Assembly (NCBI GenBank): GCA_007375725.1
Contig: VMEV01000003.1
Coordinates: 50-64,049 of the forward strand
Reading direction: 5' to 3'
DNA: 64,000 bases
DNA from: Parcubacteria group bacterium Greene0416_36
GTDB taxonomy: Bacteria; Patescibacteriota; Patescibacteriia; VMEV01
The translations under genes and the position numbers were made by a program. The stretch's first letter is position 1, and each line of letters opens with the position of its first letter. Under the pieces are notes generated by a model. The model ran no database searches, was not told the origin of the DNA, and worked only from the letters and a program-made list of their open reading frames with translations. Of the stretch, positions 5,465 through 51,000 are shown piece after piece.

Positions 5465-6340
5465 TCAAGATTTGATGTGTATCCTTACCACCCTATCCCG
5501 ATTACAGAAATCTTTAAAAATTTCTATTTTCGCCTCCGGATATAATTTGGACGCGTATTGTCGGACTCGTTCTCCCTGATCATGCCCGATTTCCAAAAGC
5601 ACGGTCCCATTGGGGGACAGGTGCTTTTTTGTTTGTTGTAGAAGTTTGAAAATCAAGGCAAGCCCATCGCGAGTAGCGATTAATGCTTGTTTGGGTTCAT
5701 ATTCCAGTTCCGCTCGAGTAGGTGAAGCCTCAAATACGGTTTGGGAAATATAGGGGAGGTTCGCAATAATGATATCCATTTTTTCTTCGAGAGGCTCGGC
5801 CAAATCTCCTTTTTTGAAAATAATTTTTTCTAATACCCCATTATTTTTGGCATTTTTGGTTGCTGTGTTTAAAGCCTCGACAGAAATATCCGTGCCAAAA
5901 AATTCCATTTGAGAATAATGACTTTGTTCTTTTAATAATTTTGCCAGAGCAATGATAATGGCTCCAGAACCCGTGCCGATATCTGCTATTCGTAATTTTT
6001 TTTCACTAATTTTTTTTATTGCCTCTAATGATTTTTCTACGAGCATTTCCGTCTCAGGGCGGGGAATCAGGACCGATGGGTTCACTTCAAATTCCAATCC
6101 ATAAAATCCGGTTTTCCTAATCAGGTATTGGAGGGGATAGTGCTCCTTCAATTTTTTAAGCATCTTATGAAATCGATCCTCTTCTCGTTTTTTGGCCACA
6201 TATTCCGGATGCGCCCACAGGAATGCCCGGTCTTTTCCAATCACATGCATCAGCAGCTCCTCACATTTGTGAGTCGCTTCGGAAATATGGGCCTTTTGGG
6301 ATTGTGTGATCGATGATTGTAACAGTGATTTTATCGTCAT
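5465..6340 (-). CDS. prmC: Release factor glutamine N5-methyltransferase PrmC/HemK
   Basis: IPRPETE motif, GTGSGAI SAM-binding motif, NLPY (NPPY-type) motif; immediately downstream of prfA in the conserved prfA-prmC arrangement. Confidence 0.85.
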   Translation of the reverse strand: MTIKSLLQSSITQSQKAHISEATHKCEELLMHVIGKDRAFLWAHPEYVAKKREEDRFHKMLKKLKEHYPLQYLIRKTGFYGLEFEVNPSVLIPRPETEMLVEKSLEAIKKISEKKLRIADIGTGSGAIIIALAKLLKEQSHYSQMEFFGTDISVEALNTATKNAKNNGVLEKIIFKKGDLAEPLEEKMDIIIANLPYISQTVFEASPTRAELEYEPKQALIATRDGLALIFKLLQQTKKHLSPNGTVLLEIGHDQGERVRQYASKLYPEAKIEIFKDFCNRDRVVRIHIKS

Positions 6341-7652: not shown

Positions 7653-8018
7653 CTACTTCTGTGCTGTGGGAGCAGCTGGTGTTTCTGTTGCGGCAACTGG
7701 TTTAGCCACTTTGGCCTTCTTGAGCTTGGGCGGCTTTTCGATTTTCTTTTCTTCAATGATCTTATTGGTTTTTCGGACTTTTTTGATGGCTTTCTTTTCG
7801 GCCAAGGCAGTGGTTGAAGTCATTCTCTTCTTAAATTTCTCCGCTGGGCTATTTTCTTTTCCAGCCAGTTCATGTCTGCGTCCGGTATAGAAAGGATGAC
7901 AAGCCGCGCAGATTTCAGTGGAAAGCTGTTCTCGAGTGGAGCCTGCTTCATATTTGGCGCCACAAGAACACATGATGACCACATTATCGTGATATTTAGG
8001 ATGGATATCGGGTTTCAT
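7653..8018 (-). CDS. rpmE: 50S ribosomal protein L31 with ~50-aa Lys/Ala-rich C-terminal extension
   Basis: MKPDIHPKY...CSCG...HPFYTG signature of bL31; extension KKAIKKVRKTNKIIEEKKIEKPPKLKKAKVAKPVAA is low-complexity basic. Confidence 0.85.
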   Translation of the reverse strand: MKPDIHPKYHDNVVIMCSCGAKYEAGSTREQLSTEICAACHPFYTGRRHELAGKENSPAEKFKKRMTSTTALAEKKAIKKVRKTNKIIEEKKIEKPPKLKKAKVAKPVAATETPAAPTAQK

Positions 8019-10081: not shown

Positions 10082-12136
10082 ATGAAAACCATTATATTGA
10101 TTACTTTTTGTACTGGTTTACTGGCTGGTTGCAATTCTGCTGAAATTAAGAAAACTGAATATTCTTTTGAGGAGTTGCAGAAGAAAAATAGAACCGAAAA
10201 AGAGCTTGAAATAGCTCAAAAGGTTCAAACGAAAGACATTGAAATCAAAGAAGACGTCATTTTGGACGGCTATGTGGTCCGAGAAAATTTTTATCGCTAT
10301 GTGGCTGGGAAAAAAGAACGGGTCCGATTTGTGGATTACCAGGCGGATAGAATCGCTCATGTCATCCGTGAAGTGGATGGATCTTACAAAGAGGTCTGTC
10401 AGAACCGCAAAACTAATAAGATTATTGAGGTTTTGTTTTATAGACCCGACGGATTTTTGGTCAAAATAGAAGAGTATGGCGTTTCTGGAATCGTGACTCT
10501 GTATTTTTCATACTCGGAAGTCCAAGGAAATTACCCTTTTATCAATCCCATCAAAAGGACTTTGAAAAAGGAGCAAGTATTTCAAGAGGTTATTATCAGT
10601 AAACAAGATGCCTCTTTAAAATTACCTAAAATCTTTCTTCTTTTACGTGAAGTATCGGGAAATACTGAGGCTGTGGGGGATTTATCATCTAAAGATAATA
10701 ATGTCTTTGAATATATCCTGCTTTGCCGTGAGTCCGGAAAGGATACTGAAACCAAAACGGTAACATTGAAGTTCTATTTGCTTTTTGAGTATTTAGGCAA
10801 AAATGAGTCTCGGCTGATGGACTTGTACTACAAAGTTCCGGGCAATGACATTTCTGTCTGCTTGGGCTTTAATAAACAGACCGGTGCTGTCGAGGGATTT
10901 TCATCTGAAAAGGGCCGCATTACTCGGTCCATTTCATATTTTCCTCAGGAAAAATTTCCGAGAATCAATACTTTCTTTCCCAATACTCTGCATGCTCCCT
11001 CAACAATTAATATCCGCAATTTGGATGCCAAGGAGCTTCACTATGTGGATTTCAAGAAGGAAGGCGGATGGGAAAAGAAGGTTTCCCAGACCTTGGTGGA
11101 TAATCGGATTGAATGGAAAAATGAAGGTGCGGATGGATCTTCTATGATCCAAACGAGAGAGTCTTATCCCTTTTTTGAATTTATAGAGGAAAAACAATGG
11201 GATACTCAAAATAAGCTTATTGCGACAAAGGTAAGCGTGGTGGATACTGTAATCCCTAAGACCCTTCTTCATGTATTGTCAACTAACGGATGTTTTTTTT
11301 CGGTGGAAAAGGGTCAGAAGAAATCTGAATCCCTGATGTATCAAGAAAATGCCGTGGAGTCTGAGTATTTGGATGTAGGCATTCCTTTTGAGACTTATCA
11401 AAAGAAGATAGAAACTGGAGGTGAAAAATCTTTTTATGTTACCACGGTTCTGGCAGGCAGGCATCAAGAGATTAAGCAACAGAAATTGCAAAAAGGTGCC
11501 GTAAAATCGCAGGTTATTTACACAAGGTCCAGTGACGAAGCCAAATGGATTGAATGTTCCAAGGAGGATCCTGCCGCTTCAAAACTGAAGGAGTCTTTTA
11601 GTCAAGAGCTTTCAGTTTTCGTGAAAGAATCAATTTTAGATCATCCGAGAATTAAAAAAGAATTGGACGATATTCCTTTTTTTAAGCGAGGTATGGTCTA
11701 TTCTTATCTTGAATCGGGGATTAAGAATTTTATTACCCAAGATATCGTCGATGATTTGGCTGTCAATGATTTTGGAGCCGGGTGCGTATACTTGCATGCA
11801 ATTATTAAGGTCCTTGGTCATTTCACCTATTTGCAAAGCAATGATCTAGACCGGAAAAAGGTGATTGATGAGGCTATTTGGGTTCCTGTTTTGGGCTATT
11901 TGATTGATCCCGCTATTGCTGAAAATTGCATTCGGATCATTGATGAAGAAAAAGAAAATCTGCTCAAGGATGCTTTTTCTCGTGTGGATCGAATTACCCA
12001 TATTAGTGAGCATTTGTTTTCAAAAAAGGAATTGCAACAGATGAAGGAAGAGGTGTCACCCTTTATGATGAAGCAATATTTAAAAAAGAAAGCAGAAATA
12101 ATTGCAAATTATAATCAATTAAAACGATCGAAATAA
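10082..12136 (+). CDS. Hypothetical lipoprotein (684 aa)
   Basis: Signal peptide with lipobox LLAGC (MKTIILITFCTGLLAGC); no recognisable catalytic motifs. Confidence 0.6.
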   Translation: MKTIILITFCTGLLAGCNSAEIKKTEYSFEELQKKNRTEKELEIAQKVQTKDIEIKEDVILDGYVVRENFYRYVAGKKERVRFVDYQADRIAHVIREVDGSYKEVCQNRKTNKIIEVLFYRPDGFLVKIEEYGVSGIVTLYFSYSEVQGNYPFINPIKRTLKKEQVFQEVIISKQDASLKLPKIFLLLREVSGNTEAVGDLSSKDNNVFEYILLCRESGKDTETKTVTLKFYLLFEYLGKNESRLMDLYYKVPGNDISVCLGFNKQTGAVEGFSSEKGRITRSISYFPQEKFPRINTFFPNTLHAPSTINIRNLDAKELHYVDFKKEGGWEKKVSQTLVDNRIEWKNEGADGSSMIQTRESYPFFEFIEEKQWDTQNKLIATKVSVVDTVIPKTLLHVLSTNGCFFSVEKGQKKSESLMYQENAVESEYLDVGIPFETYQKKIETGGEKSFYVTTVLAGRHQEIKQQKLQKGAVKSQVIYTRSSDEAKWIECSKEDPAASKLKESFSQELSVFVKESILDHPRIKKELDDIPFFKRGMVYSYLESGIKNFITQDIVDDLAVNDFGAGCVYLHAIIKVLGHFTYLQSNDLDRKKVIDEAIWVPVLGYLIDPAIAENCIRIIDEEKENLLKDAFSRVDRITHISEHLFSKKELQQMKEEVSPFMMKQYLKKKAEIIANYNQLKRSK

Positions 12137-12591: not shown

Positions 12592-12678
12592 TGGTGGGAA
12601 GGGTGGGGATCGAACCCACGAAGGCGTAAGCCAGCAGATTTACAGTCTGCCCCGTTTGACCGCTTCGGTACCTTCCCA
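12592..12678 (-). tRNA. tRNA-Tyr (anticodon GTA), type II with long variable arm, CCA encoded
   Basis: Manually folded: acceptor GGGAAGG/CCTTCCC, anticodon loop CUGUAAA, T-arm GGTTCGATCC. Confidence 0.8.
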
Positions 12679-22611: not shown

Positions 22612-24390
22612 TTACAAAGTGGAGCCATAACGAAGAGAAATGGCGTTCCGGCGGAGTTTGAGAGTGGGGGTCAGGAGCCCCGCCTCTATTGTGAAGGGTT
22701 CGGGGATGATCTCAAACTCGTAGATTTTTTCCCATTTTTCTAAGCGGCTATTTACTTTCTGGAGGATATTGTCGAAATCTTCCTTTCGGGTATGCTGATT
22801 TTGAGGAACGATTAATGCTTTTACGAAATTTCTGCTGTTGCCGATAATGCATACTTGCTGGATTTCGGGGTACTGGAGTATTTTTTCTTCAATCGGAAGG
22901 GGGAATACTTTTTCTCCATTGCCTAGGACGATCATGTCTTTAACCCTGCCAATGATTCGGAGTATCCCTTTATTATCTAAATACCCGATGTCTCCAGTGG
23001 CAAGCCAATTATCTTGAAGGATTTTCCCTGTGGCTTCAGGGTTGCGATAATATTCTTTCATGAGCCCGGGGCTTTTAACGAGAATCTCTCCTTCGATGTA
23101 AGGATTCTTGTGGGTCTGAGGCCACTCGTCTGTCGGGATGATTTTGATTTCGACGCCAGAGAGAGGTTTTCCAGCAGCTCCAGGATTCGTTCCATCAGAG
23201 TCAAGAGTGATCACGCCCGCTTCGCTCATGCCAAATCCTACACGAGAGTCCAGTCCAATAGCATTGAAATCTTTGATTATTTCTGTGCGTATTGGGGCTC
23301 CACCGACCAGAAGGGTTCGTACGGATCCGCCCAATTTCTTTTTTATCGTTTGGATCACAGTTCTATCCAAAATATTTTTGAATATTGTGGGCCAGTTTTT
23401 TCGATAAGCGCGGAATGCCAAGCCAAGCAGGGTTCTTTTAATCGGCGAGAGCCCTTTTCCTGCGTGTATTTTTTCCAAGAGAGAGGGGACCGTGCAGATC
23501 AGAGTAGGTTGGTGCAGCTGGAACGCTTCCATGAGATTGGCGGGGGTTGTTTTGTCGCAATGGTAAATATACGCGCCACTCAAAAATAAGAACCACTGTA
23601 CCCATCTTTCAAATATGTGGCTGAGGGGAAGGAAGCTGACATACCTTTCATTTTTTTGGACAAGGTTTAATAATCCGATCATTTTTAGATTTTTGGCAAT
23701 GTCTCCATGAGTATGGACACATCCTTTGCCTTCTCCGGTAGTTCCGGATGTGTATATGATTGTGGCAGGGTCATAATCGGAGACCAGTGGCAGGGTGCTC
23801 ATGTAGGTGAGATGATTCTCGATGTGGGTTCCTGGATATCGGAGGCATGCATCTGTGATCAGGGTGCCGAGGGTCACGCAAGACGGGTCGGCAGTGAAAA
23901 CGAGATAAGTGCTGTCGAGCAGTATTATCTTCTCGATTCCTATTTTTTTGAATTCTTGGATCGCCTGGATATTGGTTCCGATGGTTACTAGCATTTTGCA
24001 TTGTGCGTGCGCGGTTTGTTTTTGTGCGCCTTCTTGGGTTGTGGTTTGGTGGATGGGTACCACGATACCCCCTGCCGATAGTGCGGCCATATCCATCATA
24101 AACCATAATATGCAGTTGGGGGCCCATATTGCGATCCGGTCTCCTTTTTCGAGGCCGGCGTTTATGAGCCCGAATGTTAGATCTAGTACAAATTGACGGA
24201 TTTTTTGGCTATCCATGGCTTCCAATCTCTGCCAGTTATCAGCAGGATTTCGGAAGGTCCCTATATCCGGGCTATTCCAAAAACATTCTAGAATAGTTGA
24301 GTAATTTTGCATTGTTGCAGTCTCCCAATAAATAAATTGTAAATGTTCGACGATTGCCTTTAAAATAGGCTTATAACTGTGGCTTGTCAA
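22612..24390 (-). CDS. AMP-dependent acyl-CoA synthetase/ligase (long-chain fatty-acid-CoA ligase-like)
   Basis: AMP-binding motif IIYTSGTTGEGKG, TGDIGYLD...GRVKD motifs. Confidence 0.85.
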   Translation of the reverse strand: MTSHSYKPILKAIVEHLQFIYWETATMQNYSTILECFWNSPDIGTFRNPADNWQRLEAMDSQKIRQFVLDLTFGLINAGLEKGDRIAIWAPNCILWFMMDMAALSAGGIVVPIHQTTTQEGAQKQTAHAQCKMLVTIGTNIQAIQEFKKIGIEKIILLDSTYLVFTADPSCVTLGTLITDACLRYPGTHIENHLTYMSTLPLVSDYDPATIIYTSGTTGEGKGCVHTHGDIAKNLKMIGLLNLVQKNERYVSFLPLSHIFERWVQWFLFLSGAYIYHCDKTTPANLMEAFQLHQPTLICTVPSLLEKIHAGKGLSPIKRTLLGLAFRAYRKNWPTIFKNILDRTVIQTIKKKLGGSVRTLLVGGAPIRTEIIKDFNAIGLDSRVGFGMSEAGVITLDSDGTNPGAAGKPLSGVEIKIIPTDEWPQTHKNPYIEGEILVKSPGLMKEYYRNPEATGKILQDNWLATGDIGYLDNKGILRIIGRVKDMIVLGNGEKVFPLPIEEKILQYPEIQQVCIIGNSRNFVKALIVPQNQHTRKEDFDNILQKVNSRLEKWEKIYEFEIIPEPFTIEAGLLTPTLKLRRNAISLRYGSTL

Positions 24391-24495
24391 TGTTTTGCAA
24401 TTTTGACTTCCGCCCCTTTTTTTATTATCCTATTTCTGCTGTTGCTTGGTTGTTCCATTCTTCATTCTTAATTCTACATTTTTAATTCTTTCTAT

Positions 24496-24566
24496 TCGGG
24501 GATCGTCTAATGGTAGGACACTGGCCTTTGAAGCCAAGAATCGGGGTTCGACCCCCTGTCCCCGAA
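24496..24566 (+). tRNA. tRNA-Gln (anticodon TTG)
   Basis: Manually folded: acceptor TCGGGGA/TCCCCGA, anticodon loop CUUUGAA, T-arm CGGGGTTCGACCCCC. Confidence 0.8.
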
Positions 24567-24573
24567 CCCAACT

Positions 24574-24603
24574 AAAAACACCTTATTTAAATAGGGTGTT
24601 TTT
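24574..24603 (+). terminator. Intrinsic terminator after tRNA-Gln (AAAAACACC-loop-GGTGTTTTT)
   Basis: Read directly. Confidence 0.6.
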
Positions 24604-24694
24604 GGTTTTATCCTTGTTTTATGTCGGTTTTTGTGTTTACATACTGCTATGTCCAAAAAAGGTGTTCATTCTGTTTATAAGGAGTATCTATCGA

Positions 24695-25185
24695 TGAATA
24701 GTGAAAAAATTAAAGATTTTTTCTTTGAAGCAATGCGGGAAGGGTGGGCGGTGCAATCACCTAAAATCCCCATCTCCAATCTTCCGGGTTCTAAAAGCAT
24801 ACCCTATTCGAAGGGGGAGTATTTTCTTCTCGATTATTATTTTGTGGCTCCTAATTCAAACTCAAGTTATGGCTCGACGGTTATTTGGATTGCTGGTCGG
24901 CCGGTTTGGTTAATGCATTATGGCGGCTGGTACGATGAACCAGTCATTCCGTTTTTAAAACGAGCCTTAATGCAAAATTATAGTGAAAATTTTTTTTGGG
25001 GAGGCAGAGGGCCGGAGCGATTGGAGGGAGAGAGTCATACTTTGCAGTATTTAAATAATGTTGAGCAAAATGATTTCAATAGTTTTCGAGGAAGCGAATA
25101 CATCATTTCAACATCGGACCAATCCGGAAAGCCAGAGGGACAAAAATTAGGGGGACATCATTATTTTGGTGGGCTATTTGTATAA
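24695..25185 (+). CDS. Hypothetical protein (163 aa)
   Basis: Perfect AAGGAG SD 9 nt upstream of ATG at 24695 (ORF-track start 24631 probably too early); no family recognised with confidence. Confidence 0.5.
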
Positions 25186-25347
25186 ATAGGCAATTTTCTT
25201 AAATAGGAGCCCTTGCGTAAGTCATTCAACTTTAAAAAAGGTTGAATTTTTTTATAGCATTTTTATTGCCTTTCTCGTATCATTTTTGATACGATTCGGG
25301 TAGGAAAATGATACGATTTTTGATAAAGTCTGCGATGAGTAATTCAT

Positions 25348-26628
25348 GTGATTATGTTTCCTATTAGAATAAATAAACCGTATTATCATAAGTTTTTTAT
25401 CCAACGGGCAGGTTTAGTTGCTATTTTTGTATCGGCGCGCTGTTTAGCTAAGGACAAAAGCGTTAACAACTTGGATGAAGACTTAAGAATAGAAATCAAT
25501 AATCTGCAATGTCGAGAATATGGGGCCGTGAAGAAAAAACAACTATTTAATATTCCAGCAAGTTTCAATGGTTCAAAATTAAGAGGTCTTAAACAGACCA
25601 TAATTTTTATTTTGGTGTTGCCGAAAGGTGAAAATATATTAAATTTTTTCCCGAAATCGACAGCTATTCTCGAAGATATTTCGATATGTGAATTATCCGG
25701 TCAAAAACAACTTAATTTCAATATAAATGAACGAGCAGAGGATGGAGACAGAAGGCCTTGGGTAACATTTGTACTGATAAATTTACCGTTGTTATCTTTT
25801 TCAGTTGATCTTGCGTTAACTAGGCGTTTTTTGGATAGCGACGATGTGAAAATTATTGTGAATTCAAAAATAAAAAATAATTTCTCGTCCATAAAACATT
25901 TTTTCTGGTATTTAATTGGAGGAAATATTTTTTTCAAAAAAGGAAGTGATCAAAGCCATGAGCGAAGATTTCTAGTTAGTTTTGATGAAAATTTAGACAA
26001 TGGCATTCATTATTTAGAGTTTTTGGCGGATAGAATGCCGAAATTCGATCAGATAACTTTAAACCTTGGCTATAATGAAACTGAAGCAGGCAAGAGGGCG
26101 TCTAATATAATAAAAACATTTTCTCAAATTATTATTGATATTGCTCGTGAATATAGGATAGACCCTGTCATCGTTGCATCAGTTATCTATCAGGAACAAT
26201 CAATAAATGTTAATTTTGTTGATACTTTGACTGATTATGTTGGAGGATTGGCTTATTTAAATACTTCGGTGGGAATTGGCCAGATTAGAGTCAAAACAGC
26301 CGAGAATTTAGAGAAATTGTATCCTGAATTAAGACCGTTGGTTATTGATAATAATTCAGTTGATTCAAATATACTAAGAGTTACAAGGCTGTTAGAGCCT
26401 TCGCTGAATATAAGGTTTGTAGCCGCAAAAATTAAATTCTCGCAGGAGAGATGGAAGCAGTCTGGTTTTGATATAAGCGATAAATCGGATATTTTAGGAA
26501 CTTTATACAACTTGGAAGATATTGCCAATCCGATTTTACCTAATGAAGCACCGGAAGCTAATGATTTTGGTTTGGGTGTAGAAAATAATTATCAGAAGGT
26601 TCGTAAGTTGTTGGGGTATGAAAATTAA
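25348..26628 (+). CDS. Hypothetical protein with C-terminal lytic-transglycosylase (SLT)-like domain
   Basis: C-terminal IASVIYQEQS...SVGIGQIRVKTAENL resembles SLT E-S...G-L-M-Q catalytic region; AT-rich composition differs from flanks. Confidence 0.45.
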   Translation: MIMFPIRINKPYYHKFFIQRAGLVAIFVSARCLAKDKSVNNLDEDLRIEINNLQCREYGAVKKKQLFNIPASFNGSKLRGLKQTIIFILVLPKGENILNFFPKSTAILEDISICELSGQKQLNFNINERAEDGDRRPWVTFVLINLPLLSFSVDLALTRRFLDSDDVKIIVNSKIKNNFSSIKHFFWYLIGGNIFFKKGSDQSHERRFLVSFDENLDNGIHYLEFLADRMPKFDQITLNLGYNETEAGKRASNIIKTFSQIIIDIAREYRIDPVIVASVIYQEQSINVNFVDTLTDYVGGLAYLNTSVGIGQIRVKTAENLEKLYPELRPLVIDNNSVDSNILRVTRLLEPSLNIRFVAAKIKFSQERWKQSGFDISDKSDILGTLYNLEDIANPILPNEAPEANDFGLGVENNYQKVRKLLGYEN

Positions 26629-27202
26629 AAAGGCTTTAAAGGTTTTTTTAATTTTGATTTTAATTTATAATTTATTTCTATTTTGTAGTATTTACTATTA
26701 TTCCAGAATAGAAAAAATTTTAAAAGCTGACGCTATTGTAGTTTTAGGTGCCAGTCAATGGAATGGACAGCCTAGTCCGGTTTTTAAGGCAAGGCTTGAC
26801 CATGCCTATGATTTATACTCCGGATTGTATGCTGATAAATTGATATTGACAGGTGGTATAGGTAAAGGAGAAAATTTATCGGAGGCTGAGGTCGGAAAAA
26901 GATATTTGGTTTCTAAAGGCGTCAAAAAAGAGGCTATTTTAATGGAAGAAAAAGGATGGACTTCTTGGCAAAGTTTGAATAATGTTAAAGATATTATTAA
27001 AGATCAATATGTAGAATCTTTTATCTTGGTAAGTGATGGGTTCCATTTAATGAGGCTGAATAAAATGGGAAATGATTTGGGTTGGAAAGTGACTACTTCT
27101 CCTACCCCCGATAGCCCGATTCTCAGAAATAAGTGGACAGAATTTAGATATATGCTAAGAGAGCTGGGTGTTTATTGGATGTATTTATTTTTTAAAGTTT
27201 AA
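26618..27202 (+). CDS. DUF218 (YdcF/ElyC/SanA-type) envelope-biogenesis protein, N-terminal TM anchor
   Basis: DAIVVLGASQ...RL..A..LY..GLYADKLILTGG pattern typical of DUF218; overlaps upstream gene by 11 nt. Confidence 0.65.
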   Translation: MKIKKALKVFLILILIYNLFLFCSIYYYSRIEKILKADAIVVLGASQWNGQPSPVFKARLDHAYDLYSGLYADKLILTGGIGKGENLSEAEVGKRYLVSKGVKKEAILMEEKGWTSWQSLNNVKDIIKDQYVESFILVSDGFHLMRLNKMGNDLGWKVTTSPTPDSPILRNKWTEFRYMLRELGVYWMYLFFKV

Positions 27203-27309
27203 AAAACATAATATATTTTGGATACGATTTCGCCTAGAAAGGCTTTATTTATCTGTTCTCGTGTTCTTTTTGTGTTCTATCCAAATGATTTTTTTTAGGG
27301 AGAAATATC

Positions 27310-27888
27310 ATGGTTAAAATAGTAAAAAGCAGGAAGAAAAAGACGGGACAAACCGATGACGAGAAATTGGTGAATCAGATCATGAAAAAGGAGAAAAAAA
27401 GGGGGAAGAAATTGTTTAAAGAAAGAGAGCTTTCCGGATCCTTGGAAGTCCAGTGGCAAGCCTTTACAGATGTGATTGCAGTGAGGCGGGATGAAGAAGT
27501 CTTTTGTCTCGTTTCGCTGTCCGCATTGTTTGATTTATTGGCCTTGTCGGATGATAAATTTCGTGAAGTAGGTGAGTGGGGGCTGGAAAAATGGATACCC
27601 CTGGAGTTCGATGATCCCTGTGATTTTGTCCGCAAATGGTTAGCGGCTATTGCTGAAAATCTGGGTATTTTGGACGAAGAAGAGAGGGCGCTTCGTTTGG
27701 AATCTTTTGATAATGATGTGGATTTTTATACAATCGATTGCGAAACTCTGGAGAAAATAAAAAGCCAGATTATCTCTCCTCCGGATTGGGTTGAAAAGCT
27801 ATTCAATAACAATGAGATGTCCTACAATGAAGAAGAGACAGATTCCGATTATGAATCCGGGGAAGATCGTGGTCTATGGGGATCTTAA
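27310..27888 (+). CDS. Hypothetical protein, basic N-terminus and strongly acidic C-terminal region
   Basis: ORF track; no family recognised. Confidence 0.4.
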   Translation: MVKIVKSRKKKTGQTDDEKLVNQIMKKEKKRGKKLFKERELSGSLEVQWQAFTDVIAVRRDEEVFCLVSLSALFDLLALSDDKFREVGEWGLEKWIPLEFDDPCDFVRKWLAAIAENLGILDEEERALRLESFDNDVDFYTIDCETLEKIKSQIISPPDWVEKLFNNNEMSYNEEETDSDYESGEDRGLWGS

Positions 27889-27970
27889 TTTTCTTTACAA
27901 AAGTCAAATTGAAAAATCAAAAAAAAACCGTATCAACGGTTTTTTTAAATTGCATCGCGGCTAAGTAAGG

Positions 27971-28044
27971 TAGCAGGGATGGGGGTCGAACCCATGACCT
28001 CGGGTTTATGATACCCACGCTCTAACCAGCTGAGCTACCCTGCT
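27971..28044 (-). tRNA. tRNA with CAT anticodon (elongator Met or Ile2-lysidine type; not initiator)
   Basis: Manually folded: acceptor AGCAGGG/CCCTGCT, G1-C72 pair and only two G-C in lower anticodon stem argue against initiator. Confidence 0.8.
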
Positions 28045-28103
28045 AAATCTGTGCCTGCACCGCGTAGCCCTCTCCTCGAGCGTAAGCGATGAAGGCGAAG
28101 CGG

Positions 28104-28187
28104 TGCCGTCGGTCGGAATCGAACCGACACCTCGGTGAAGAGACAGGTTTTTGAGACCTGCGTGTCTACCAGTTCCACCACGACGGC
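28104..28187 (-). tRNA. tRNA-Leu (anticodon CAA), type II long variable arm
   Basis: Manually folded: acceptor GCCGTCG/CGACGGC, anticodon stem CAGGT/ACCTG loop CUCAAAA, T-arm GTCGGTTCGATTCCGAC. Confidence 0.8.
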
Positions 28188-28189
28188 CT

Positions 28190-28226
28190 GCCTAATGTCA
28201 AATCGCAAAGCGATTTGACATTAGGC
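28190..28226. repeat. Perfect 37-nt palindrome GCCTAATGTCAAATCGC-AAA-GCGATTTGACATTAGGC between the divergent tRNA cluster and parA
   Basis: Read directly; contains TTGACA on both strands. Confidence 0.5.
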
Positions 28227-28437: not shown

Positions 28438-29211
28438 ATGGCTCACATCATTTCGCTCATCAATCAAAAAGGGGGGGTAGGGAAGACGACGACATCGATC
28501 AATCTTGCGGCGGCTCTAGCCATCGAAGGGAAAAAAGTCCTCCTCGTGGATCTCGATCCTCAGGCCAATGCGACATCGGGACTCGGTATTGATTACCGGA
28601 CCGTCGGGGGAGATATTTATTCGCTTCTATTGGGCAAAACCAAGCCCGAGGATTCCGTGTTTCAGACTACGGTCGAGAATTTGTACGTTCTCCCCGCCAC
28701 TCCGGAATTGGCCGGCGCGTCCGTGGATTTGGTCACTCAGGAAAAACGGGAATATCGGCTCGTCGAGCCTCTTGCTCATCTCTCCAATTATTTCGATTAT
28801 ATTCTGATCGACTGCCCGCCGTCTTTAGGACTCCTCACCATCAATGCTCTGACTGGTTCCGGTCAGATTTTGATCCCAGTTCAGGCTGAGTATTATGCTC
28901 TAGAAGGGATCGGTCAACTTTTGTCTACGGTTGGCTTGGTCCAAGAACATCTGGCTCCAAATCTTAAAATTTTAGGCGCGGTGGTGACCATGTATGATCG
29001 CCGCAACAAGCTGGCTCTGCAGGTTGTCAAAGAATTGGATCAGTATTTCCCCTACTATGTTTTTAAATCGTTTATCCCCAGAAATATTCGTCTGACCGAG
29101 GCGCCGAGCCATGGGAAGACGATTTTCGATTATTCTCCCGGATCCTTGGGCGCCATGGCGTACCGCAATTTAGGCGGAGAGATTATCGAGAAGTTGGGGA
29201 AATTAATATAA
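28438..29211 (+). CDS. parA: Chromosome partitioning ATPase ParA/Soj
   Basis: Deviant Walker A KGGVGKTT. Confidence 0.9.
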
Positions 29212-29236: not shown

Positions 29237-30115
29237 ATGTCCAATACCGGTTTAGGTCGCGGGCTGGGGGCCCTCATTCCCCGGCTTCCAAAATTAGAAC
29301 AAATTTCTTCTAGGAATGAACTCCTCAAAAGCGAAGAAGAGTCGGGTGTTCGCGTGGTCGAACTGCCCCTAGATGCGATTGTCCCCAATTCCGCCCAGCC
29401 GCGTACGGTATTTGATGAAGTCTCTTTGGCGGAACTCGCCTCCTCGATCCGTCAGTATGGAGTCTTGAGTCCGATCATTGTTGAGGAAGTGGGTTCTGGC
29501 AAATACGCCATCATTGCCGGCGAGCGCCGCTGGCGAGCCGCACGTCTGGCTGGCCTCGACACCATCCCCGCCATTGTCCGCGAAACCGGGGAGCAGGAGC
29601 GTCTCGAATTGGCTCTGGTTGAAAATATCCAGCGCCGAGATCTCGATGCTATCGAAGAAGCCATGGCCTATGACCGCCTCGGCTCGGAATTCGATCTTAC
29701 CCAAGAAGAAATCGCCGATCGCATGGGCAAAAGCCGCTCCCAGATCGCCAATTTTATTCGCCTTCTCGCTCTCCCCGAGGACATCCGTCGCGCCCTGCAG
29801 GAGGGAATGATCTCCGTGGGCCACGCAAAGGTGATTTTGGGAATGGAAGACGAAGAGTCTCAGCGTAATTTATTCCGCAAAATTTTGGAAAATGAACTCA
29901 GCGTCCGTGATGCCGAAGGCTTGGTGCCCGTCAAATCCACCTTCCGCCGCTCTGAAGGCAACCCGGCCGACCCCCGCTGGTCTGATTGGGAGCAGACCCT
30001 CTCCGAAGAACTCTCCGCCCGCGTCCTCATCTGCCGAAAAGGCAAATGCAATGAAATTCGAATCCAATGCGAACCGGAGGAACTCGAGGAGATTGTGGAG
30101 AAATTGAAGGAGTAA
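29237..30115 (+). CDS. parB: Chromosome partitioning protein ParB/Spo0J
   Basis: ParB box GERRWRAA, HTH region. Confidence 0.9.
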   Translation: MSNTGLGRGLGALIPRLPKLEQISSRNELLKSEEESGVRVVELPLDAIVPNSAQPRTVFDEVSLAELASSIRQYGVLSPIIVEEVGSGKYAIIAGERRWRAARLAGLDTIPAIVRETGEQERLELALVENIQRRDLDAIEEAMAYDRLGSEFDLTQEEIADRMGKSRSQIANFIRLLALPEDIRRALQEGMISVGHAKVILGMEDEESQRNLFRKILENELSVRDAEGLVPVKSTFRRSEGNPADPRWSDWEQTLSEELSARVLICRKGKCNEIRIQCEPEELEEIVEKLKE

Positions 30116-30316: not shown

Positions 30317-31483
30317 ATGCAGAATATTGTAAATTTGATAACTGCGTTTAAGGGGACATTGTCCCTGTTAGTTTGTCTTGTCATGCTTCTATTAGTACTC
30401 AAACGCATATTTGCGTTTGGGAAATGTCTTCCCCCTCAACAACTTACTGTGACTGAAGCGTCACAGGTCTCTCTTAACTGGACTCAACGATTTCGCATCG
30501 TTTTGAGCGGAGCTTCTGGTAAACCTAAAGGAGATTATTATTATGATGCTCAGCAATTGAAAATTGTGAAAGCGGAACTTCTCCTGCTCCAACAAGGAAA
30601 TAATAGAATAGAAGCCAAGTATTCTATTTTGTCTGGTCAGTGGACACAAGAGGTGGCTACTAATCAGGCATTGTCGCAGAAATTGGCAGAATCCAATGAC
30701 GAATTGAAACGTGTGATCGCTCAGTCCGCCATTTCAAAAGTCGCTCGAGAGAAAGAAGCGGGGGATTATGAATTGCTTGTTCTCTCATTGCAAGCTGATC
30801 TTGTTGGTACGTGCAATACCCTTAAGAATGCACAGGATTCTTTGGCCAAAGAGGCAACTGAAGTTACTCGCTTGAAGGAAGAGATCGTAGGCTGGAATAA
30901 AACGGTTGAAGGTCTCAATAATGAGTGTCGAAAATTGTCAGAACAAAATAAAGCCTTGGAAGTTCATCTCAAAAGCGCTGAATGTCATATAGAAGTTCGT
31001 GACGCAAAGATCGTGGAGATAAGGAAGGTTTTTCAGAAACAGGCTAACCTGTACTTTCAAGAGTATACCTATCAATTTCCGCATGACATAGGTCATGAGA
31101 TTCTTGAGGTATCTGGAGAAACCTCTGAAACACTTTATGATATTGAAGAGGCTCCAAAGGGTCAAAGCGTGTTGCAGAAACCACAGGAATGCAAGATATT
31201 CAAGCCCCTAACTAGAGAAGAGTGGGATAATCCTTTTCCTAGTGACATACATCCAGAGTGTACAATGGTTCGAGAGGCTTTTGAGAAAGATCAGAAGGAG
31301 CATGCTAGAAAATTTCTGGCTCAGCAGTTGCAGAATTCTAATTCTCATATTGCGAAACTCCACGGACAGGAAGGTCCAATCGAGCGACAGGGAGAGGGTG
31401 AAGATTCTGAGCCCGTGTTGGTAGAGGAAGTAACCACGGAGACAATCGTAGATATCGATCTACCAGATCGTCAAGAAGGCTAA
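30317..31483 (+). CDS. Membrane-anchored coiled-coil protein (hypothetical)
   Basis: N-terminal TM helix (LSLLVCLVMLLLVL) then long heptad-like region rich in E/K/Q/L. Confidence 0.5.
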   Translation: MQNIVNLITAFKGTLSLLVCLVMLLLVLKRIFAFGKCLPPQQLTVTEASQVSLNWTQRFRIVLSGASGKPKGDYYYDAQQLKIVKAELLLLQQGNNRIEAKYSILSGQWTQEVATNQALSQKLAESNDELKRVIAQSAISKVAREKEAGDYELLVLSLQADLVGTCNTLKNAQDSLAKEATEVTRLKEEIVGWNKTVEGLNNECRKLSEQNKALEVHLKSAECHIEVRDAKIVEIRKVFQKQANLYFQEYTYQFPHDIGHEILEVSGETSETLYDIEEAPKGQSVLQKPQECKIFKPLTREEWDNPFPSDIHPECTMVREAFEKDQKEHARKFLAQQLQNSNSHIAKLHGQEGPIERQGEGEDSEPVLVEEVTTETIVDIDLPDRQEG

Positions 31484-45021: not shown

Positions 45022-48000
45022 ATGTTTAAACTGTCCACTTTTCCATGTCTTTTATTGGGGATCATCATGGCGGCAAGTTTCTTTGTTCCTCGGTCTTTCA
45101 ATCCTGAAATAGCTCTTGCCGCATCTCCTGATCTGGGATTGGCTCCCCTCGAAGACTCGGGACTGGCGACAGACACGGATTTACGGGTGATTATTGCTCG
45201 CATCATCCGTGCTATTTTAGGTTTCCTGGGTGTTTTAGCATTAGGTATTACGCTCTATGGCGGGTTTGTCTACATGACTGCCCGAGGCGATGCCGAGCGT
45301 GTCGAGACTGCGAAGAAGATTCTGCGCAATGGAGTGATCGGGCTTGTGATTATTATGGGCGCTTATACTATCGCTTCTTTCGTGATCCGGTCGCTTACCA
45401 GTGCTACTGGGGTGGGCGGGGGATCGGGGGCTGGTGGCCGCGGCGGGATTGGCGGTTTTGGGGCCGGCGGGTCGGATATTTTCACGGTGGATAATATTAC
45501 TCCCAAGGGTGATATTCCCATCAAAAATGTGGTGGTTCGTATTGTTTTTAATGCTTCCATTGAGCCGGGATCGATTCGTGACCGAATTTCTGTCTTGGAT
45601 TTATCTAGCGGGGAAGAAGTTTCGGGTCACTATGATGTGGCGGGCAATATTGTTGAGTTCACCCCGTCCCAAGCCTGTACCGAAGATCCCAAACGTTTTT
45701 GTTTTCTTGGCGATACTGAATTTGATGTCCGCGTGATCGAGGGAATTGTGGCCTCGGAAGTTCGAAAAACACAGAAGAATGCTTATCGAACAGATGGGAT
45801 TGATCCGGAAGGCGAGGAATCGCCCGAAGCCGCATTTGGGTCTGGTGCCATTACTTTGGCTTGCCGTGCTTTTGCTATTTCGGACAATTGTACGGCGAGA
45901 TTCAAAACGGGGAATCTAGTCGATTCATTAGGTCCTGATACCCGAATTATCAATCCTGCCGAGGGTCAGGGAGTTCCGGGAGGGGAAGAGGGGGCTTCGG
46001 TGGATGTTTTATTCGGAATCGAGGATAATTCAGGCATTTCTTATTCTCAATTATGGACTGCCAAAAAAGGAGAAGGTTTTAGCGAGGAAGGACTTTTTTC
46101 ACCCCTAGATGAAATCTCTCCCAGATCCGTAGAAGATGCTTTGATTCTTTGGAACACGGAAAATTTGGAAAAAGGGTCAATCTATAATTTAAAAATCGCT
46201 TCATTTGATATTGATACGAATTCCAAAGAATCCGAGATAATGTCGGTTATTGTGCGGCCTTTGCATTGTTTTGACGAAGAGTTGGATAAGGATTTGGGGG
46301 AGGTGGTAGCGGGTCCACCTGCTTGCGGAGGGGACTGTGGCCAGTGTGGAGGCGGAGTCTGTGTGACTTCTCTCGATTGTGCCCAAGGGGCGTGTCTGGC
46401 TGGAAAGTGCGTGTCTTTGCCTGAAATTTCTGAGGTATTCCCATCGGACGGTGCTTCCGGTACCTTTGTGACGGTCTATGGCCAAGGTTTTGGGGACGCC
46501 TTGGGAAAGGTGAGCTTTTTGGGAGGAGCGGGCCCAACGGACGATGTGGCGGCCTCTTTGCCAGGCGGCCAGTGCGGCAATACTTGGCATGATGATTTTG
46601 TCATTGTTGAAGTACCGAGTGCCGCTAAAACGGGTCCGATCAGCCTGTCCACCAGCCACGCCCTGATGGATACCACGGCCGATAGCCGGGGAATCCAGAT
46701 GGATTTTACCGTCAACAATAACCGCCGTCCCTCTATTTGTCTGGTAGATCCGGAGGTAGGGGAGCCTTTTTCTGATATTCGAGTAGTCGGCAAGAATTTT
46801 GGCCCCACCGCGGGTACAGGGGCGAATAAAAGCACGGTCAAATTTGGAAATATTTCCGCGCCTTCGGCTGTTTGGGGACCGGAATCCATTACCAATATAA
46901 AAATTCCGCTCTTACGTGGCGGAGAAACCTTTGTTTCCGTTGATACTGTTGCTTCCCAAAGCAATCGTGTGCCGTTCATGGTCAAAGAATCGGAAACCTT
47001 GCCTCGTATCGAAAAAATTATCCCTTCTTCTGGCCCGGTATCCCAATATATTACCCTCTCAGGAGTTAATTTTGGCTCTGCGGCAGGAAGTGTTGAATTC
47101 ATTGGTTCCGACGGGAAAACGACTTTGGCGGATATTGAATTCCCCAAAGAATGCAAGAGTAATTATTGGCATCCCGAGTCGGTTGTCGTGAAGGTTCCGC
47201 CTGTATTTTTGCAGGATGCTTCAGGGGAAATTTTATATCGTGTGATTCTCAAAACTTCCGGCGGAGCCCAGAGCAATTTTGTCGATTTCGACGTCAATAC
47301 AAGAGAGCGGACTCCCGGACTCTGCGCCATTTCTCCGGACAATGGCCCGGCTGGACTGGAAGCCACTGCCATTGGAGAAGGGTTTGGCGCCTTTGTGGCG
47401 GGGGATTCATCGGTGCGGTTTTCTGCGGCGGGAACCGGAGCTGCGGCTGGAATAGCGAGTTGGGATGTGAAATCCGTGGTAGTTTCTGTTCCTCCAGCGG
47501 CCCAGAGCGGGGATGTAATTTTGATTGATTCTACGGGTACCCAGTCCAATGGTGTTCTCTTTACCGTGGGTGTCTGTCAGGCGGATACATGTCAAGAAGG
47601 GCTGGTCTGTTGCGGCAATGGCGCCTGTTCCGCCCAGTGCGATGAGCCTGTTCCTTTTTGCGCGTATAAATGGTCTTTTTCGACCGGAAAAGTGGAAGGC
47701 TGGCCTTGCGCGGATGATGGAGATTGTTCTTGCCCTTCTGCTCCCACAGCCGATAATCCCTGTATGACCTGTTCGCCCTCGGGCGTTTGTCAGGCTTCCT
47801 GTTCTTCGGATGCCGACTGTCGGGAAGGGTCGAGCTGCCAGTGCGGGAGCGGGAAAAATTCGGCTTGTTTTTGTCAGAGTAATGCCCCCTTTGTGATAGA
47901 GGACGAGACTTGTGGAGAAAATTCCCAGAGCCCTTCTCCCTTCATCAGTTCCGAAGATGCCTGCACGAATGCCAAAATTTCTGCCCGTTTTTCAGTCAAT

Positions 48001-51000
48001 ATGTCAGATGATTCTTTGTTTATTTCTCCGGATGAAAATTTCTCCTCGATTCTGGTCAAAGAGTGTAATGCCGGAGACAGGCTGGATCCAGCCGGCTGCC
48101 GTTTGTTGGAGGGCGAGCTTTCTTTGATTAATTCCGGATTATCGGGAGAAGGTTTTATATTTGTCGGGGGTTCGGCAGATTCACCTCGGTCTCTCCGAAT
48201 CAATACTTGGTATCAGGTACTCATTCGTGGAGGAGACCATCCCCTAGCCGTGCGCGCGTCTCCTGAATTGGGTGGCCTCGCCATGAGAGAGGATTATATT
48301 TGGTCTTTTAAGACAAAAGAAAGTTGTACCGCTTCCAAGGTTTTGGTTTTACCGGGAGCGAAAACATTTACAGATCCTTCTCTAATCCAGAATTTTACTT
48401 CAGAGGCCGTAGCCGCGAACTGCAATATGATTACGGTTCCAGCATCGGACTGGAAATGGAGTACCCAAAAAAATGACGGGCCCTTTATTTCCATTTTCGA
48501 TGTACTGGATGATCATTCCGAGATTATTGGGGATGCCCAATCCGCCATGCCCGCGCCATTTGGACTTCTGACCCCAGCCAATGACCCCGCCCAGCTCACC
48601 GCCCAATTGTGCCGAGGGGGGAATGCGTGCTCAGCGGGGCTCCAAGACAGCGCGGATGTCTCGGTTTTATTCGATACGAGCTCACCCAATCCTCGGGTGA
48701 TTATCGATCCTTCGTGTTCCATTAATACCCAGAGCCCGTCTCCTTTTATGAGTAGTACCGGGGCTTGTGCTAATGCTTTGATATCTGCCCGATTCAATAA
48801 AGACATGAATGATGACCGATTATTGGATCCGAGCCAGGTACAGCTCCGCAAGTGTGGAGATGGAGACAAATTTGATTCTGGGGACTGCGATGATGTTCTT
48901 TCCGGTATCGATAGCAATGGAGATAGCAAAGCCGATGCCTTGAGTAAAGTGGGAGCGGATAATGCCGCGGGCGAAGGATTTTTATTTGTCCCATCGGCCG
49001 AAAAATTAGAGCCAGATACTTGGTATGAGGCGCGTATTGCCGGAGGCGATGGCGGCATGATTAGCGAGGACGGGTTTCCCATGAAAGAGGATTTCGTCTG
49101 GCACTGGAAGACCCGCAATAGCACCGCTCTTTGCGATATCTCAAGGGTTTTGGTGACTCCTCCTTCGGCTTTGGCGACTTTTAAAGGGGCCAAGACTCGA
49201 TACAGTGCGGTTCCCTTAGCTGCTAATTGCAATATTCTCCGTGGAAATTATTTGTGGAAATGGGATACAACGAATCCTCTGAATGATTTGCGTGTCGAAC
49301 TTTCCAATCCTCTAGGGGCGGATCTTCCCGATCCTATTCTCAGCACCGAACAGGTAGCAAATGCTTCTTTTGAAGACCTAGATCTTTCAGGATGGATCCG
49401 GTCGGCCCCAGCCTCGGCGGATTCAATCATCTTTAAGCGCGTTCCATCTCCAGGATTGCTCCGTGAAAATGCTCTCCGCATCGATAAGATTGGAGGCAAA
49501 GCGGATTCATTGTCCGAGGGCGTGGCACTAGATCCGGGAGTCCACTATCGACTGCGTGTCCATTTCAAAACTGATGCAGGCACGTCTTTGCCCCTTGTAT
49601 TGGATGAATCGGGCAGCGGATCCATTATTTTGGCTCTCGATTTGAATTCTGCTTCTTTTGTCGAACATTTTGAGGATTTTAAGGTTCCCGATTTCGCCAA
49701 ATCTCCTCGGATCCGCTTTTCTGCAGCCGCGGGACAGGTTTTGGGCGCTTTTGTCAACGAGATTTCCATCCGCGAGGTAATCGAATCTGGAGGAGCCATT
49801 ATTGCCGAGGCTCGTAGCCAAACCTTGGTCGAAAATCCCATTCATATTCGCGCGGCCATTTTGCCGAGCCTCAAATCTGATACTGGAGACCTGTATATTG
49901 TATTCAATAAGCCCAGAGTGGTGGAGCAATATCCGATTTGTCAGTCGGCGTGTCTGAATGCTGCTTTGGGGGGGCGCTTCAATTCAGCGATGGATTTGGA
50001 TTCTTTGGAAGACAATATGGAACTTTGGTCCTGTGAGAATGCAGTCTGTGCTTCGGGATCAGCGAAAAATATTTCTATCGCCGGAAGCAATGCCGATATA
50101 ACCGCCGAATTTGGAACGATTTTTAACTTGTCTCCTCTTTCGAATCGCGGTCTTTTGGAAAAAGACCGCCAATATCGCATTGTTATTCGCGGCGGAACCT
50201 CTGGAGTCAAAAGCGGGGAGGGGGTGGTGCTCGATGGATTGAACTTTGATTCTAATGGCGACGGGATCAAGGATAGTTATTCTTGGACCTTTAAAACTTC
50301 CACCAATCTTTGCGTGGTTGCTTCGGTGGGTGTATTGCCTTTATTCAAGGAGAAATTCTTGATCGGCGTGGATCAGGATTATGTGGCTATGCCCGCGGGA
50401 ACGGGGGACTCCTGCAATCCTAATGGCCAGAAAATTAATCCTCTGACCGTAGATTGGAGATGGTTGTCTTCGGTCAATACCGTTGCTTCTATTTCGCAGG
50501 GCGATCTCGAGCCTGCCGAACTTTTGGACAATCGCATCGATCCTTTTCAGACCGCCACGACCGAGGGCCCGGGCGAAACGGAAATCATCGCTTCCAATGA
50601 GCCCCCCACCGCGGAAGGCAAGGCTAAGCTGAAGGTGACTTGCGGACTTAAAAATGATACGGACTGCAAGGACTCCGATATCGAAACTTCTATATTTGAG
50701 TGGGGAATCAATCGTGGGAGCGGGTGTTGCTTTGCTAGGCCGCGGGTAATTGTTCCTCTGGGCGCTTTTGACGACGAATCGGTTCCGGACAATGCGCTTC
50801 CACTATTGGGGGCTGCGTTTCCAAAGCCGGGAATCAATGCCGGGTTTAGCGGCGATCTGCTCCATCCAAATCCAGCCGCCCTGCCTTTGGTCTGCCGCAA
50901 CGCTTTGATTGCCGCCCAGTTCAGTGAAAGGATGAATTTGGCGGATCTTACAAGTAATAATATTATTGTCCAGATCAATAATAGCAATAAGCCTTGCGGC

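Follow-up and report, generated by a model that had tools for sequence, protein, structure and literature searches.

A compositionally deviant gene pair, encoding a putative muramidase and a DUF218 protein, beside tRNA genes in a Parcubacteria contig

The locus described here lies in a 64,000-nt stretch from the Patescibacteria genome Parcubacteria group bacterium Greene0416_36 (assembly GCA_007375725.1, contig VMEV01000003.1, positions 50 to 64,049 of the forward strand). This stretch is referred to throughout as the window, and coordinates are counted from its first nucleotide. It contains an AT-rich block faced from both sides by the 3′ ends of tRNA genes, namely tRNA-Gln(ttg) (24495–24570, + strand, by ARAGORN; Rfam 24496–24566, 59 bits) and tRNA-Met(cat) (27969–28044, − strand, by ARAGORN; Rfam 27971–28044). 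Beyond tRNA-Met lie tRNA-Leu(caa) (28102–28187, − strand, by ARAGORN; Rfam 28104–28187), then parA (28438–29211) and parB (29237–30115). The block holds four open reading frames (ORFs): a gene for a DUF5680 protein, the two overlapping genes that are the main subject of this report (gene A, 426 aa, 25348–26628, + strand; gene B, 194 aa, 26618–27202, + strand), and an acidic ORF. The initial annotation had recognised an AT-rich block between tRNA genes, and its three tRNAs, four ORFs and low GC content were all confirmed. An Rfam scan for riboswitches or other non-coding RNAs in the leader of the gene pair returned tRNAs only.

The compositional signal is narrower than the block. GC content falls to 0.31–0.34 over approximately 25150–27400, against a window mean of 0.468, and the lowest-GC segment of 1855 nt in the 64 kb starts at 25201 (GC 0.326; mean 0.468, standard deviation 0.040, z approximately −3.5). 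Genes A and B have GC contents of 0.33 and 0.32, their GC content at third codon positions (GC3) is 0.28 compared with a mean of 0.50 (standard deviation 0.08) for the genes of the window, and they take ranks 1 and 2 among the 43 window genes in codon-usage distance, so that the suggested GC and codon-usage check singles out this pair. The break in composition coincides with the pair (25348–27202) and not with the tRNA borders; deviant composition and codon usage are limited to 25.2–27.3 kb. The earlier description of the whole tRNA-to-tRNA block as AT-rich therefore stands for the two overlapping genes, which are extreme, but not for the DUF5680 gene and the acidic ORF, which are not clearly deviant and fall in the lower range of ordinary genes.

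Gene A encodes a protein of two domains. An AlphaFold2 model built on a 53-sequence alignment reached a predicted local distance difference test score (pLDDT) of 87.8 and divides the protein into an N-terminal domain (residues 1–245, 25348–26082, + strand) and a lysozyme-like catalytic domain of the Tse3/DUF1402 type (26083–26628, + strand). In the model, residues 247–421 form a helical lysozyme-like domain bearing the motifs YQE283QS, NTSxGIGQ312 and GTLY387N. The C-terminus matches Pfam DUF1402 (35 bits against a cut-off of 27), the top Foldseek matches of the catalytic domain in the PDB are Tse3 (probability 1.0), with MltC and g-type lysozyme as weaker matches, and Tse3 is also recovered by sequence with the family profile (E 1e-4). 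Among precomputed matches to the Tse3/DUF1402 families (PF22115 and PF07182, of the lysozyme-like clan), that to PF22115 was weak. The alignment places YQE283QS of gene A on AE250Q of Tse3, and NTSIGIGQ on NTSIGLGQ; Tse3 uses Glu250 for catalysis (PMC3792639). The C-terminus had previously been read as an SLT-like lytic transglycosylase. The superfamily was correct, in that the fold and the motif layout (E-S, G-x-x-Q, Y) are those of SLT lytic transglycosylases (PF01464) and goose-type lysozymes, but the family was not: a search with the PF01464 profile gave no match to gene A at E up to 0.01. Model and alignment indicate that the active site of gene A, of the lysozyme type, is intact, and the product of the gene is predicted, most likely with Glu283 as the catalytic residue, to cleave the glycan strands of peptidoglycan.

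The N-terminal domain matched no Pfam family. Residues 6–240 were modelled separately as an all-beta tandem sandwich (pLDDT 92.5, predicted template modelling score 0.91) with the invariant acidic motifs AEDGDRRPW and DSDDVK, and in the PDB the fold resembled nothing more specific than generic tandem binding modules. The domain probably binds a wall polymer. A hydrophobic stretch, GLVAIFVSARC (residues 22–31), was considered as a signal peptide and rejected: it is conserved and modelled as a buried core strand (pLDDT >90), and residues 6–31 as a whole are core beta-strands of the same confidence. Because the stretch is a conserved, confidently modelled part of the core, gene A is taken to lack a Sec signal peptide. 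No recognised trafficking determinant (signal peptide, Rhs, LXG, PAAR, MIX and similar) was found in gene A.

Gene B begins 11 nt before the end of gene A, and the two genes are translationally coupled. The earlier reading of this gene as a DUF218/ElyC-like gene overlapping its predecessor was upheld by a solid match to PF02698 (E 3e-27, 95 bits). A basic N-terminus precedes a single hydrophobic segment (residues 8–28), which would serve as a membrane anchor, and the catalytic domain is predicted to face outside the membrane. In a MAFFT alignment that included SanA of E. coli, T115, H143 and R181-E182 were kept in all 12 cassette DUF218 partners, corresponding to SanA T125, H149 and E182; the match of the glutamates rests on a shared R-E motif, as MAFFT offsets them by a few columns. 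SanA has a periplasmic role in peptidoglycan synthesis and needs its Thr-His-Glu triad (PMC12176290), and by alignment gene B has an intact triad of the SanA type. Gene B is not an orthologue of ElyC (35 bits against a cut-off of 205 for the NCBIfam ElyC equivalog NF007794), and a sequence comparison of its DUF218 domain with solved structures gave no match. The proposal that the block holds wall-active genes is thus sustained in the form of a putative peptidoglycan glycosidase and a DUF218 protein.

The pair recurs as a unit. Exact-protein look-ups, GTDB species genomes and JGI metagenomes yielded 30 distinct family loci, all in Patescibacteria (designated by L numbers where they need to be told apart). 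The GTDB scan was pattern-based, so that its 11 full-length loci among 185,579 species genomes are a lower bound; among 5.8 billion clustered proteins gene A has approximately 57 full-length relatives or clusters (47–63% identity), and all those that are named come from Patescibacteria. A DUF218 gene lay directly 3′ of gene A in 30/30 distinct loci, mostly with a 4-nt ATGA overlap. The neighbourhoods were otherwise unrelated, with, for example, fmt/def, MacB transporters, AbiE toxin-antitoxin and MmeI-type restriction genes, an AAA ATPase, or HisRS...ParAB. At none of these loci did the DUF5680 gene or the acidic ORF accompany the pair; they are bystanders of what is, elsewhere, a two-gene cassette. 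In L004/L005 the cassette (L004 7874–9735) sits in a defence-island-like setting between two AbiEi/AbiEii toxin-antitoxin pairs and an MmeI-type restriction-modification gene. In L017 (4723–7403; Parcubacteria RIFCSPHIGHO2_01_FULL_47_10b) it lies between tRNA genes, with tRNA-Pro and tRNA-Arg 53 nt upstream and tRNA-His approximately 500 nt downstream; no flanking repeat was detectable there, on a contig that contains Ns.

Both halves of gene A occur in other combinations. The N-terminal domain (47–50% identity) is fused elsewhere to SLT, Hydrolase_2 (SleB-type) or FG-GAP C-termini, and some of these paralogues do carry PF01464. The family of the downstream partner co-varies with the type of catalytic domain: proteins of the Tse3-like type had a DUF218 partner in 30/30 loci, those of the SLT type shared a downstream partner of approximately 200 aa in 2/2 loci (the two partners being homologous, E 2e-22), and those of the Hydrolase_2 type shared another in 2/2 loci (E 1e-6). 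The SLT- and Hydrolase_2-type partners are N-terminally anchored, tightly coupled and unlike DUF218; a long SLT variant of 739 aa had no tightly linked partner. Outside the candidate phyla radiation (CPR), the catalytic domain has its closest relatives (38–42% identity end to end) in RHS-repeat toxins from gut Eubacterium (Firmicutes), where it forms the C-terminal tip. In two of these Rhs proteins (L020, 42–2435; L021, 4585–7572) the Tse3-like tip is followed by a 90-aa multi-pass membrane protein, beyond which lie orphan Rhs tips with other toxin domains. At L024 (1952–4191), a Hydrolase_2-type N-domain protein has beside it an rtcB gene, before which lie a LAGLIDADG-like ORF and an archease gene; this may be a homing-endonuclease or intein arrangement.

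Comparison across loci also bears on where the pair came from. At 26 other loci, in hosts with GC contents of 0.25–0.54, the pair shared the base composition of its host, the difference in GC content between pair and flanks ranging from +0.048 to −0.074; in the window it was −0.143, twice the largest deficit found elsewhere. The two closest relatives of gene A (63% and 55% identity) come from low-GC hosts, the closer of them from L029, where the flanks have approximately 25% GC. A deficit so far beyond that of other loci, taken with close relatives in low-GC hosts, points to horizontal acquisition, and argues that the cassette has not yet ameliorated in this 47%-GC genome. It is therefore probable, in our judgement, that the AT-rich signal is a two-gene cassette of approximately 2.1 kb (about 25.2–27.3 kb), imported by this CPR bacterium from a lower-GC member of the same radiation and encoding the partnership of genes A and B proposed below. 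The cassette would have landed in a tRNA-rich stretch upstream of parAB.

Other genomes suggest how such a cassette might move. When the upstream flank of each locus was aligned with its downstream flank, strong direct repeats emerged at 6/22 testable loci (L002, L011, L012, L016, L042 and L047; z 10–47 compared with shuffles). These repeats are 40–100 nt long and locus-specific, and lie up to approximately 75 nt 5′ of gene A and approximately 30 nt 3′ of gene B; five of the loci have repeats that are longer than 30 bp and unique to the locus, a description that L047 fits only weakly. What is repeated differs: the 3′ end of the upstream gene in L012 (approximately 100 nt), the leader and first 24 nt of a pilT-like gene in L011, and intergenic hairpins in L002 and L016. 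Dispersed repeats were rejected as their source, each core being present at the two flanks only within the fetched loci, except the short L047 core, which had a third copy. The repeat in L042, a Parcubacteria contig unrelated to the window, consists of a terminator and the last 31 nt of tRNA-Leu(caa), with a partial copy at 5841–5919 and the intact tRNA at 7910–7994. The copies bracket, in an att-like arrangement, an insert of approximately 1.95 kb in which the two genes stand alone, without an integrase, and ParA and ParB are encoded directly after it. The landmark is thus the same as in the window (tRNA-Leu(caa), then parAB), although the organisms are not close (ParB 46% identical). A tRNA 3′ end duplicated around the same gene pair makes the association of the cassette with tRNA sites a real one. 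The earlier proposal of a tRNA-flanked integration island accordingly survives in part, as foreign-looking DNA beside tRNAs with a tRNA link in L042, but the unit is a two-gene cassette of approximately 2.1 kb, and the outer genes never travel with the pair.

The window itself shows a fainter pattern. A 19-nt imperfect repeat matches 25278–25296, in the upstream cassette flank, to 27212–27229 (TATATTTTGGATACGATT, + strand), 10 nt after the stop codon of gene B; these positions are analogous to those of the significant repeats at the six loci above. The upstream flank (25278–25318, + strand) also holds two copies of the 9-mer GATACGATT (25288–25318), and the three + strand copies of this 9-mer in the 64 kb all lie in the two cassette flanks (25288–25318 and 27221–27229), with 0.55 copies expected and three reached in 2/100 shuffles. 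The 9-mer is not conserved upstream of the cassette in relatives; an 8-mer regular expression derived from it found one further partial match, on the reverse strand at 43121. The 19-nt repeat may be a remnant of a target duplication, or a copy of a promoter or operator. A wider repeat search over 24.3–28.4 kb found only short AT-rich families at chance level. That no integrase is visible, as the initial annotation stated, holds for the ORFs of at least 50 aa in 24.5–28.2 kb, among which there is no integrase or recombinase or remnant of one; the four genes match DUF5680, DUF1402, DUF218 or nothing.

We propose that the cassette would be a self-contained, recombinase-free insertion unit, often lying between two copies of its target sequence. 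For restriction-modification units, recombinase-free ‘insertion with long target duplication’ has been documented (Furuta, Abe and Kobayashi 2010, PMC2853133); it is known mainly from naturally competent bacteria, with repeats of tens to approximately 100 bp, sometimes at tRNA genes, and often with an insert of deviant GC content (PMC2853133). The cassette resembles those units in having few genes, no mobility gene, and locus-specific direct repeats that are sometimes at tRNAs. It differs in its cargo, which is a wall hydrolase pair and not a DNA-cleaving system, in that its duplications are inferred from one genome each, and in that the window's own repeat is vestigial at best.

Several points weigh against import by this route. 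The GC content of the pair is slightly below that of its flanks in most genomes (median approximately −0.03), so part of the deficit is intrinsic to the genes. The 19-nt repeat is not significant by itself (Smith-Waterman z 1.7), and the last 14–22 nt of the four tRNAs have no second copy in the window with 2–3 mismatches allowed, which is also the outcome of the suggested check for direct repeats of tRNA 3′ ends as att sites. The closest sampled cassette is only 63% identical, and the donor is thus unsampled. Among 5.8 billion proteins, the best non-self match of ParB is 47% identical and that of the acyl-CoA synthetase encoded upstream of the block 32%, from which it follows that the lineage is phylogenetically isolated and that the database holds no close relative genome; with no close relative carrying an empty site, the case for an insertion in the window is a compositional one. 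With nothing closer than 32% identity among those proteins, the synthetase gene (long-chain type, 22612–24390, − strand) may itself have come from a distant source.

The same evidence was weighed against other accounts of the pair. Vertically inherited, native genes could be AT-rich through gene-specific constraints (low expression, or membrane or secreted composition), as the mild median deficit elsewhere would allow, and the pair in L042 stands at the same tRNA-Leu(caa)–parAB landmark with a gene A identity to the window (47%) about equal to that of ParB (46%). This account is nonetheless decidedly improbable: the deficit in the window is double any other, GC3 is 0.28 against 0.50, the codon ranks are the first two of 43, the closest relatives of gene A are in low-GC hosts and are more alike than the core proteins are to those of any sampled genome, and the family is very patchy (at least 11 full-length loci in 185,579 species genomes; approximately 57 clusters in 5.8 billion proteins). 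We also regard as unlikely a classical genomic island, in which a tyrosine or serine integrase, since decayed together with its att sites, inserted the whole 3.4-kb block from tRNA-Gln to tRNA-Met at the 3′ end of a tRNA gene. The inward-facing tRNA 3′ ends, four accessory-looking genes, a somewhat low GC content in the DUF5680 gene too, and the genuine tRNA-Leu duplication around the cassette in L042 are all what such an island would offer. However, neither an integrase fragment nor a tRNA-end repeat remains even with 2–3 mismatches, composition breaks at the pair and not at the tRNAs, at other loci the pair is always found without the DUF5680 gene or the acidic ORF, and repeat-bounded inserts in other genomes contain two genes only, at duplicated targets that differ by locus. 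The suggestion of an old or decayed integrase island thus gives way to what other genomes show, locus-specific target duplications around a recombinase-free pair.

Phage, plasmid and defence-system origins were rejected on uniformly negative searches: IMG/VR held no relative, tblastn against 50,697 phage records (INPHARED) and 72,556 plasmids (PLSDB) gave no match, none of the four proteins matched PHROG, and PADLOC defence models were negative. A remnant of a prophage or satellite, with gene A as an endolysin or virion-associated lysin and gene B as a holin-like membrane protein, has in its favour the superficial likeness of a signal-less lysin and small membrane protein to an endolysin-holin pair, and generic beta-sandwich matches to tail proteins in BFVD. 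It is scarcely credible given these blank searches, the lack of phage genes in approximately 30 contexts, and the nature of DUF218, a Rossmann-like enzyme domain and not a holin.

What the pair does can be approached through its known relatives. Like Tse3, the muramidase effector of the Pseudomonas aeruginosa type VI secretion system (T6SS) whose immunity protein is Tsi3, gene A keeps the catalytic Glu and the G..Q and Y motifs, and Tse3 is its best structure and profile match (PMC3792639). Like the Tse3/Tsi3 pair, it is signal-less and its next gene encodes a strictly co-occurring, extracytoplasmic membrane-associated protein. Unlike Tse3, however, with which it shares only approximately 18–19% sequence identity, gene A has an unrelated, all-beta tandem sandwich as its N-terminal half, and gene B is a DUF218 enzyme-like protein where Tsi3 is a beta-sandwich lipoprotein. 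No T6SS genes were present among the precomputed Pfam lists of approximately 30 cassette contexts, no whole-genome search for a T6SS having been made. To our knowledge, no T6SS is known in CPR bacteria.

With Rhs and other polymorphic toxins the family shares, as in L020 and L021 of Eubacterium, the same catalytic domain as a C-terminal tip with a small membrane protein next to it, and more generally a constant N-terminal region with varied wall-cleaving C-terminal domains, each with its own downstream partner family. In contrast to those toxins, the CPR family lacks Rhs, LXG, PAAR or any other recognised trafficking domain and lacks arrays of orphan tips, and gene B belongs to no known immunity family. 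Gene B for its part resembles SanA and ElyC of the E. coli inner membrane in its DUF218 domain, N-terminal anchor, outside-facing domain, Thr-His-Glu triad and link to peptidoglycan (PMC12176290), but it is only approximately 19% identical to SanA, scores 35 bits where the ElyC equivalog takes 205, and, unlike sanA and elyC, is obligatorily coupled to a muramidase gene.

In the mechanism proposed, the catalytic domain of gene A, tethered to an N-terminal domain that probably binds a wall polymer, would cut peptidoglycan, and gene B would be a dedicated partner, specific to the catalytic domain of gene A, that limits its action or protects against it at the producer's own envelope; gene B may act, for example, on lipid-linked or nascent peptidoglycan. 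We lean slightly towards the wall of a host or competitor as the target, at a little under an even chance, and hold the cell's own wall to be a substantial possibility. A constant carrier with swapped ‘warheads’, matched partners and a mobile, patchy spread make an effector/immunity-like role for the gene pair plausible. Taken to its fullest extent, the cassette would belong to an undescribed polymorphic family of cell-wall effectors in CPR/Patescibacteria, in which the N-terminal domain targets or delivers Tse3-like, SLT or SleB-like warheads against the wall of a host or competitor, matched membrane-anchored partners (in this case a catalytically competent DUF218 protein) neutralise them, and the units spread by recombinase-free insertion with long target duplication. 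This compound proposal is tentative, and we would not expect all of it to hold. Gene A has no recognisable export signal, neither a trafficking domain nor a secretion system of a known kind is apparent, and the DUF218 protein keeps an apparent active site, which is atypical of a binding-type immunity protein; moreover, the same matching of partners would be expected of an autolysin that binds the wall and is controlled by a specific membrane regulator, and all these points tell against a simple effector.

Such an autolysin is indeed the competing account of function: a housekeeping-type module in which gene A serves to remodel the wall of its own cell as this grows or divides and gene B tunes the flux of lipid II or nascent glycan, without antagonism between organisms. 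Pairs of an enzyme and a specific membrane regulator are common, for example SleB-YpeB, a binding-module-like N-terminal domain is typical of wall-binding autolysins, and the triad of gene B is conserved. The DUF218 proteins SanA and ElyC are, besides, envelope-biogenesis factors (PMC12176290). Against it are the enzyme's lack of a signal peptide, the patchy, mobile distribution with insertion footprints, the interbacterial toxins (Rhs tips and Tse3) that are the nearest relatives of the catalytic domain, and the swapping of catalytic domains on a constant N-terminal domain with partners swapped to match. We consider the autolysin account possible but doubtful.

How ultra-small, host-dependent CPR bacteria breach or remodel walls is largely unknown, and the locus offers a compact handle on the problem. 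What the DUF218 (SanA/ElyC) proteins, widespread as they are, do biochemically has likewise long been unexplained, and the strict pairing of a muramidase with DUF218 bears on that question: were the fullest form of the proposal true, DUF218 would gain a concrete role as an enzyme that protects or modifies peptidoglycan or lipid II, and the units would spread in the manner of selfish restriction-modification units. The locus would also carry recombinase-free ‘insertion with long target duplication’, hitherto tied to restriction-modification genes, over to a cell-wall pair. The kinds of system involved are known ones: enzymes of the lysozyme family, as effectors or autolysins, that have cognate partners, and insertion with long target duplication. 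The N-terminal domain of gene A is new. Should the functional interpretation fail throughout, an ordinary small horizontal acquisition would remain.

Of the two bystanders, the upstream gene (24694–25185, + strand, 163 aa) had been called an orphan, but it belongs to DUF5680 (PF18931, E 3e-8, above the Pfam cut-off). Its Shine–Dalgarno sequence was correctly noted (AAGGAG, 8 nt 5′ of the ATG); the gene has its own AT-rich hairpin at 25225–25253, a GC content of 0.40, GC3 of 0.36 and a codon-distance rank of 9/43. The downstream ORF (27310–27888, + strand) encodes a 192-aa acidic protein (isoelectric point 4.6) with a basic N-terminus, a GC content of 0.42 and GC3 of 0.44. It is the orphan it was said to be, matching only itself among 1.84 billion representative proteins, apart from two weak repeat-like matches, and matching nothing in Pfam, NCBIfam, PHROG or PADLOC. 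In those two matches its residues 111–182 weakly resemble a repeat unit of giant proteins of 3976 and 3151 aa (E 2e-7 and 1e-4; at most 24 matched stretches).

A terminator scan placed a hairpin after tRNA-Gln (24570–24607) and a bidirectional one between the acidic ORF and tRNA-Met (27921–27946). A perfect 17-nt inverted repeat (GCCTAATGTCAAATCGC / GCGATTTGACATTAGGC, with a 3-nt loop) occupies 28190–28226, 5′ of tRNA-Leu and before parA, and a 388-aa orphan ORF without a Pfam match directly follows parB (30317–31483, + strand). Elsewhere in the window, a second AT-rich patch adjoins a tRNA: 10082–12136 (+ strand; GC 0.37–0.39), near tRNA-Tyr (12592–12677, − strand), encodes a 684-aa protein that has no Pfam match, with a GC content of 0.38 and GC3 of 0.385. 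A giant ORF of 2400 aa lies at 45022–52224 (+ strand).

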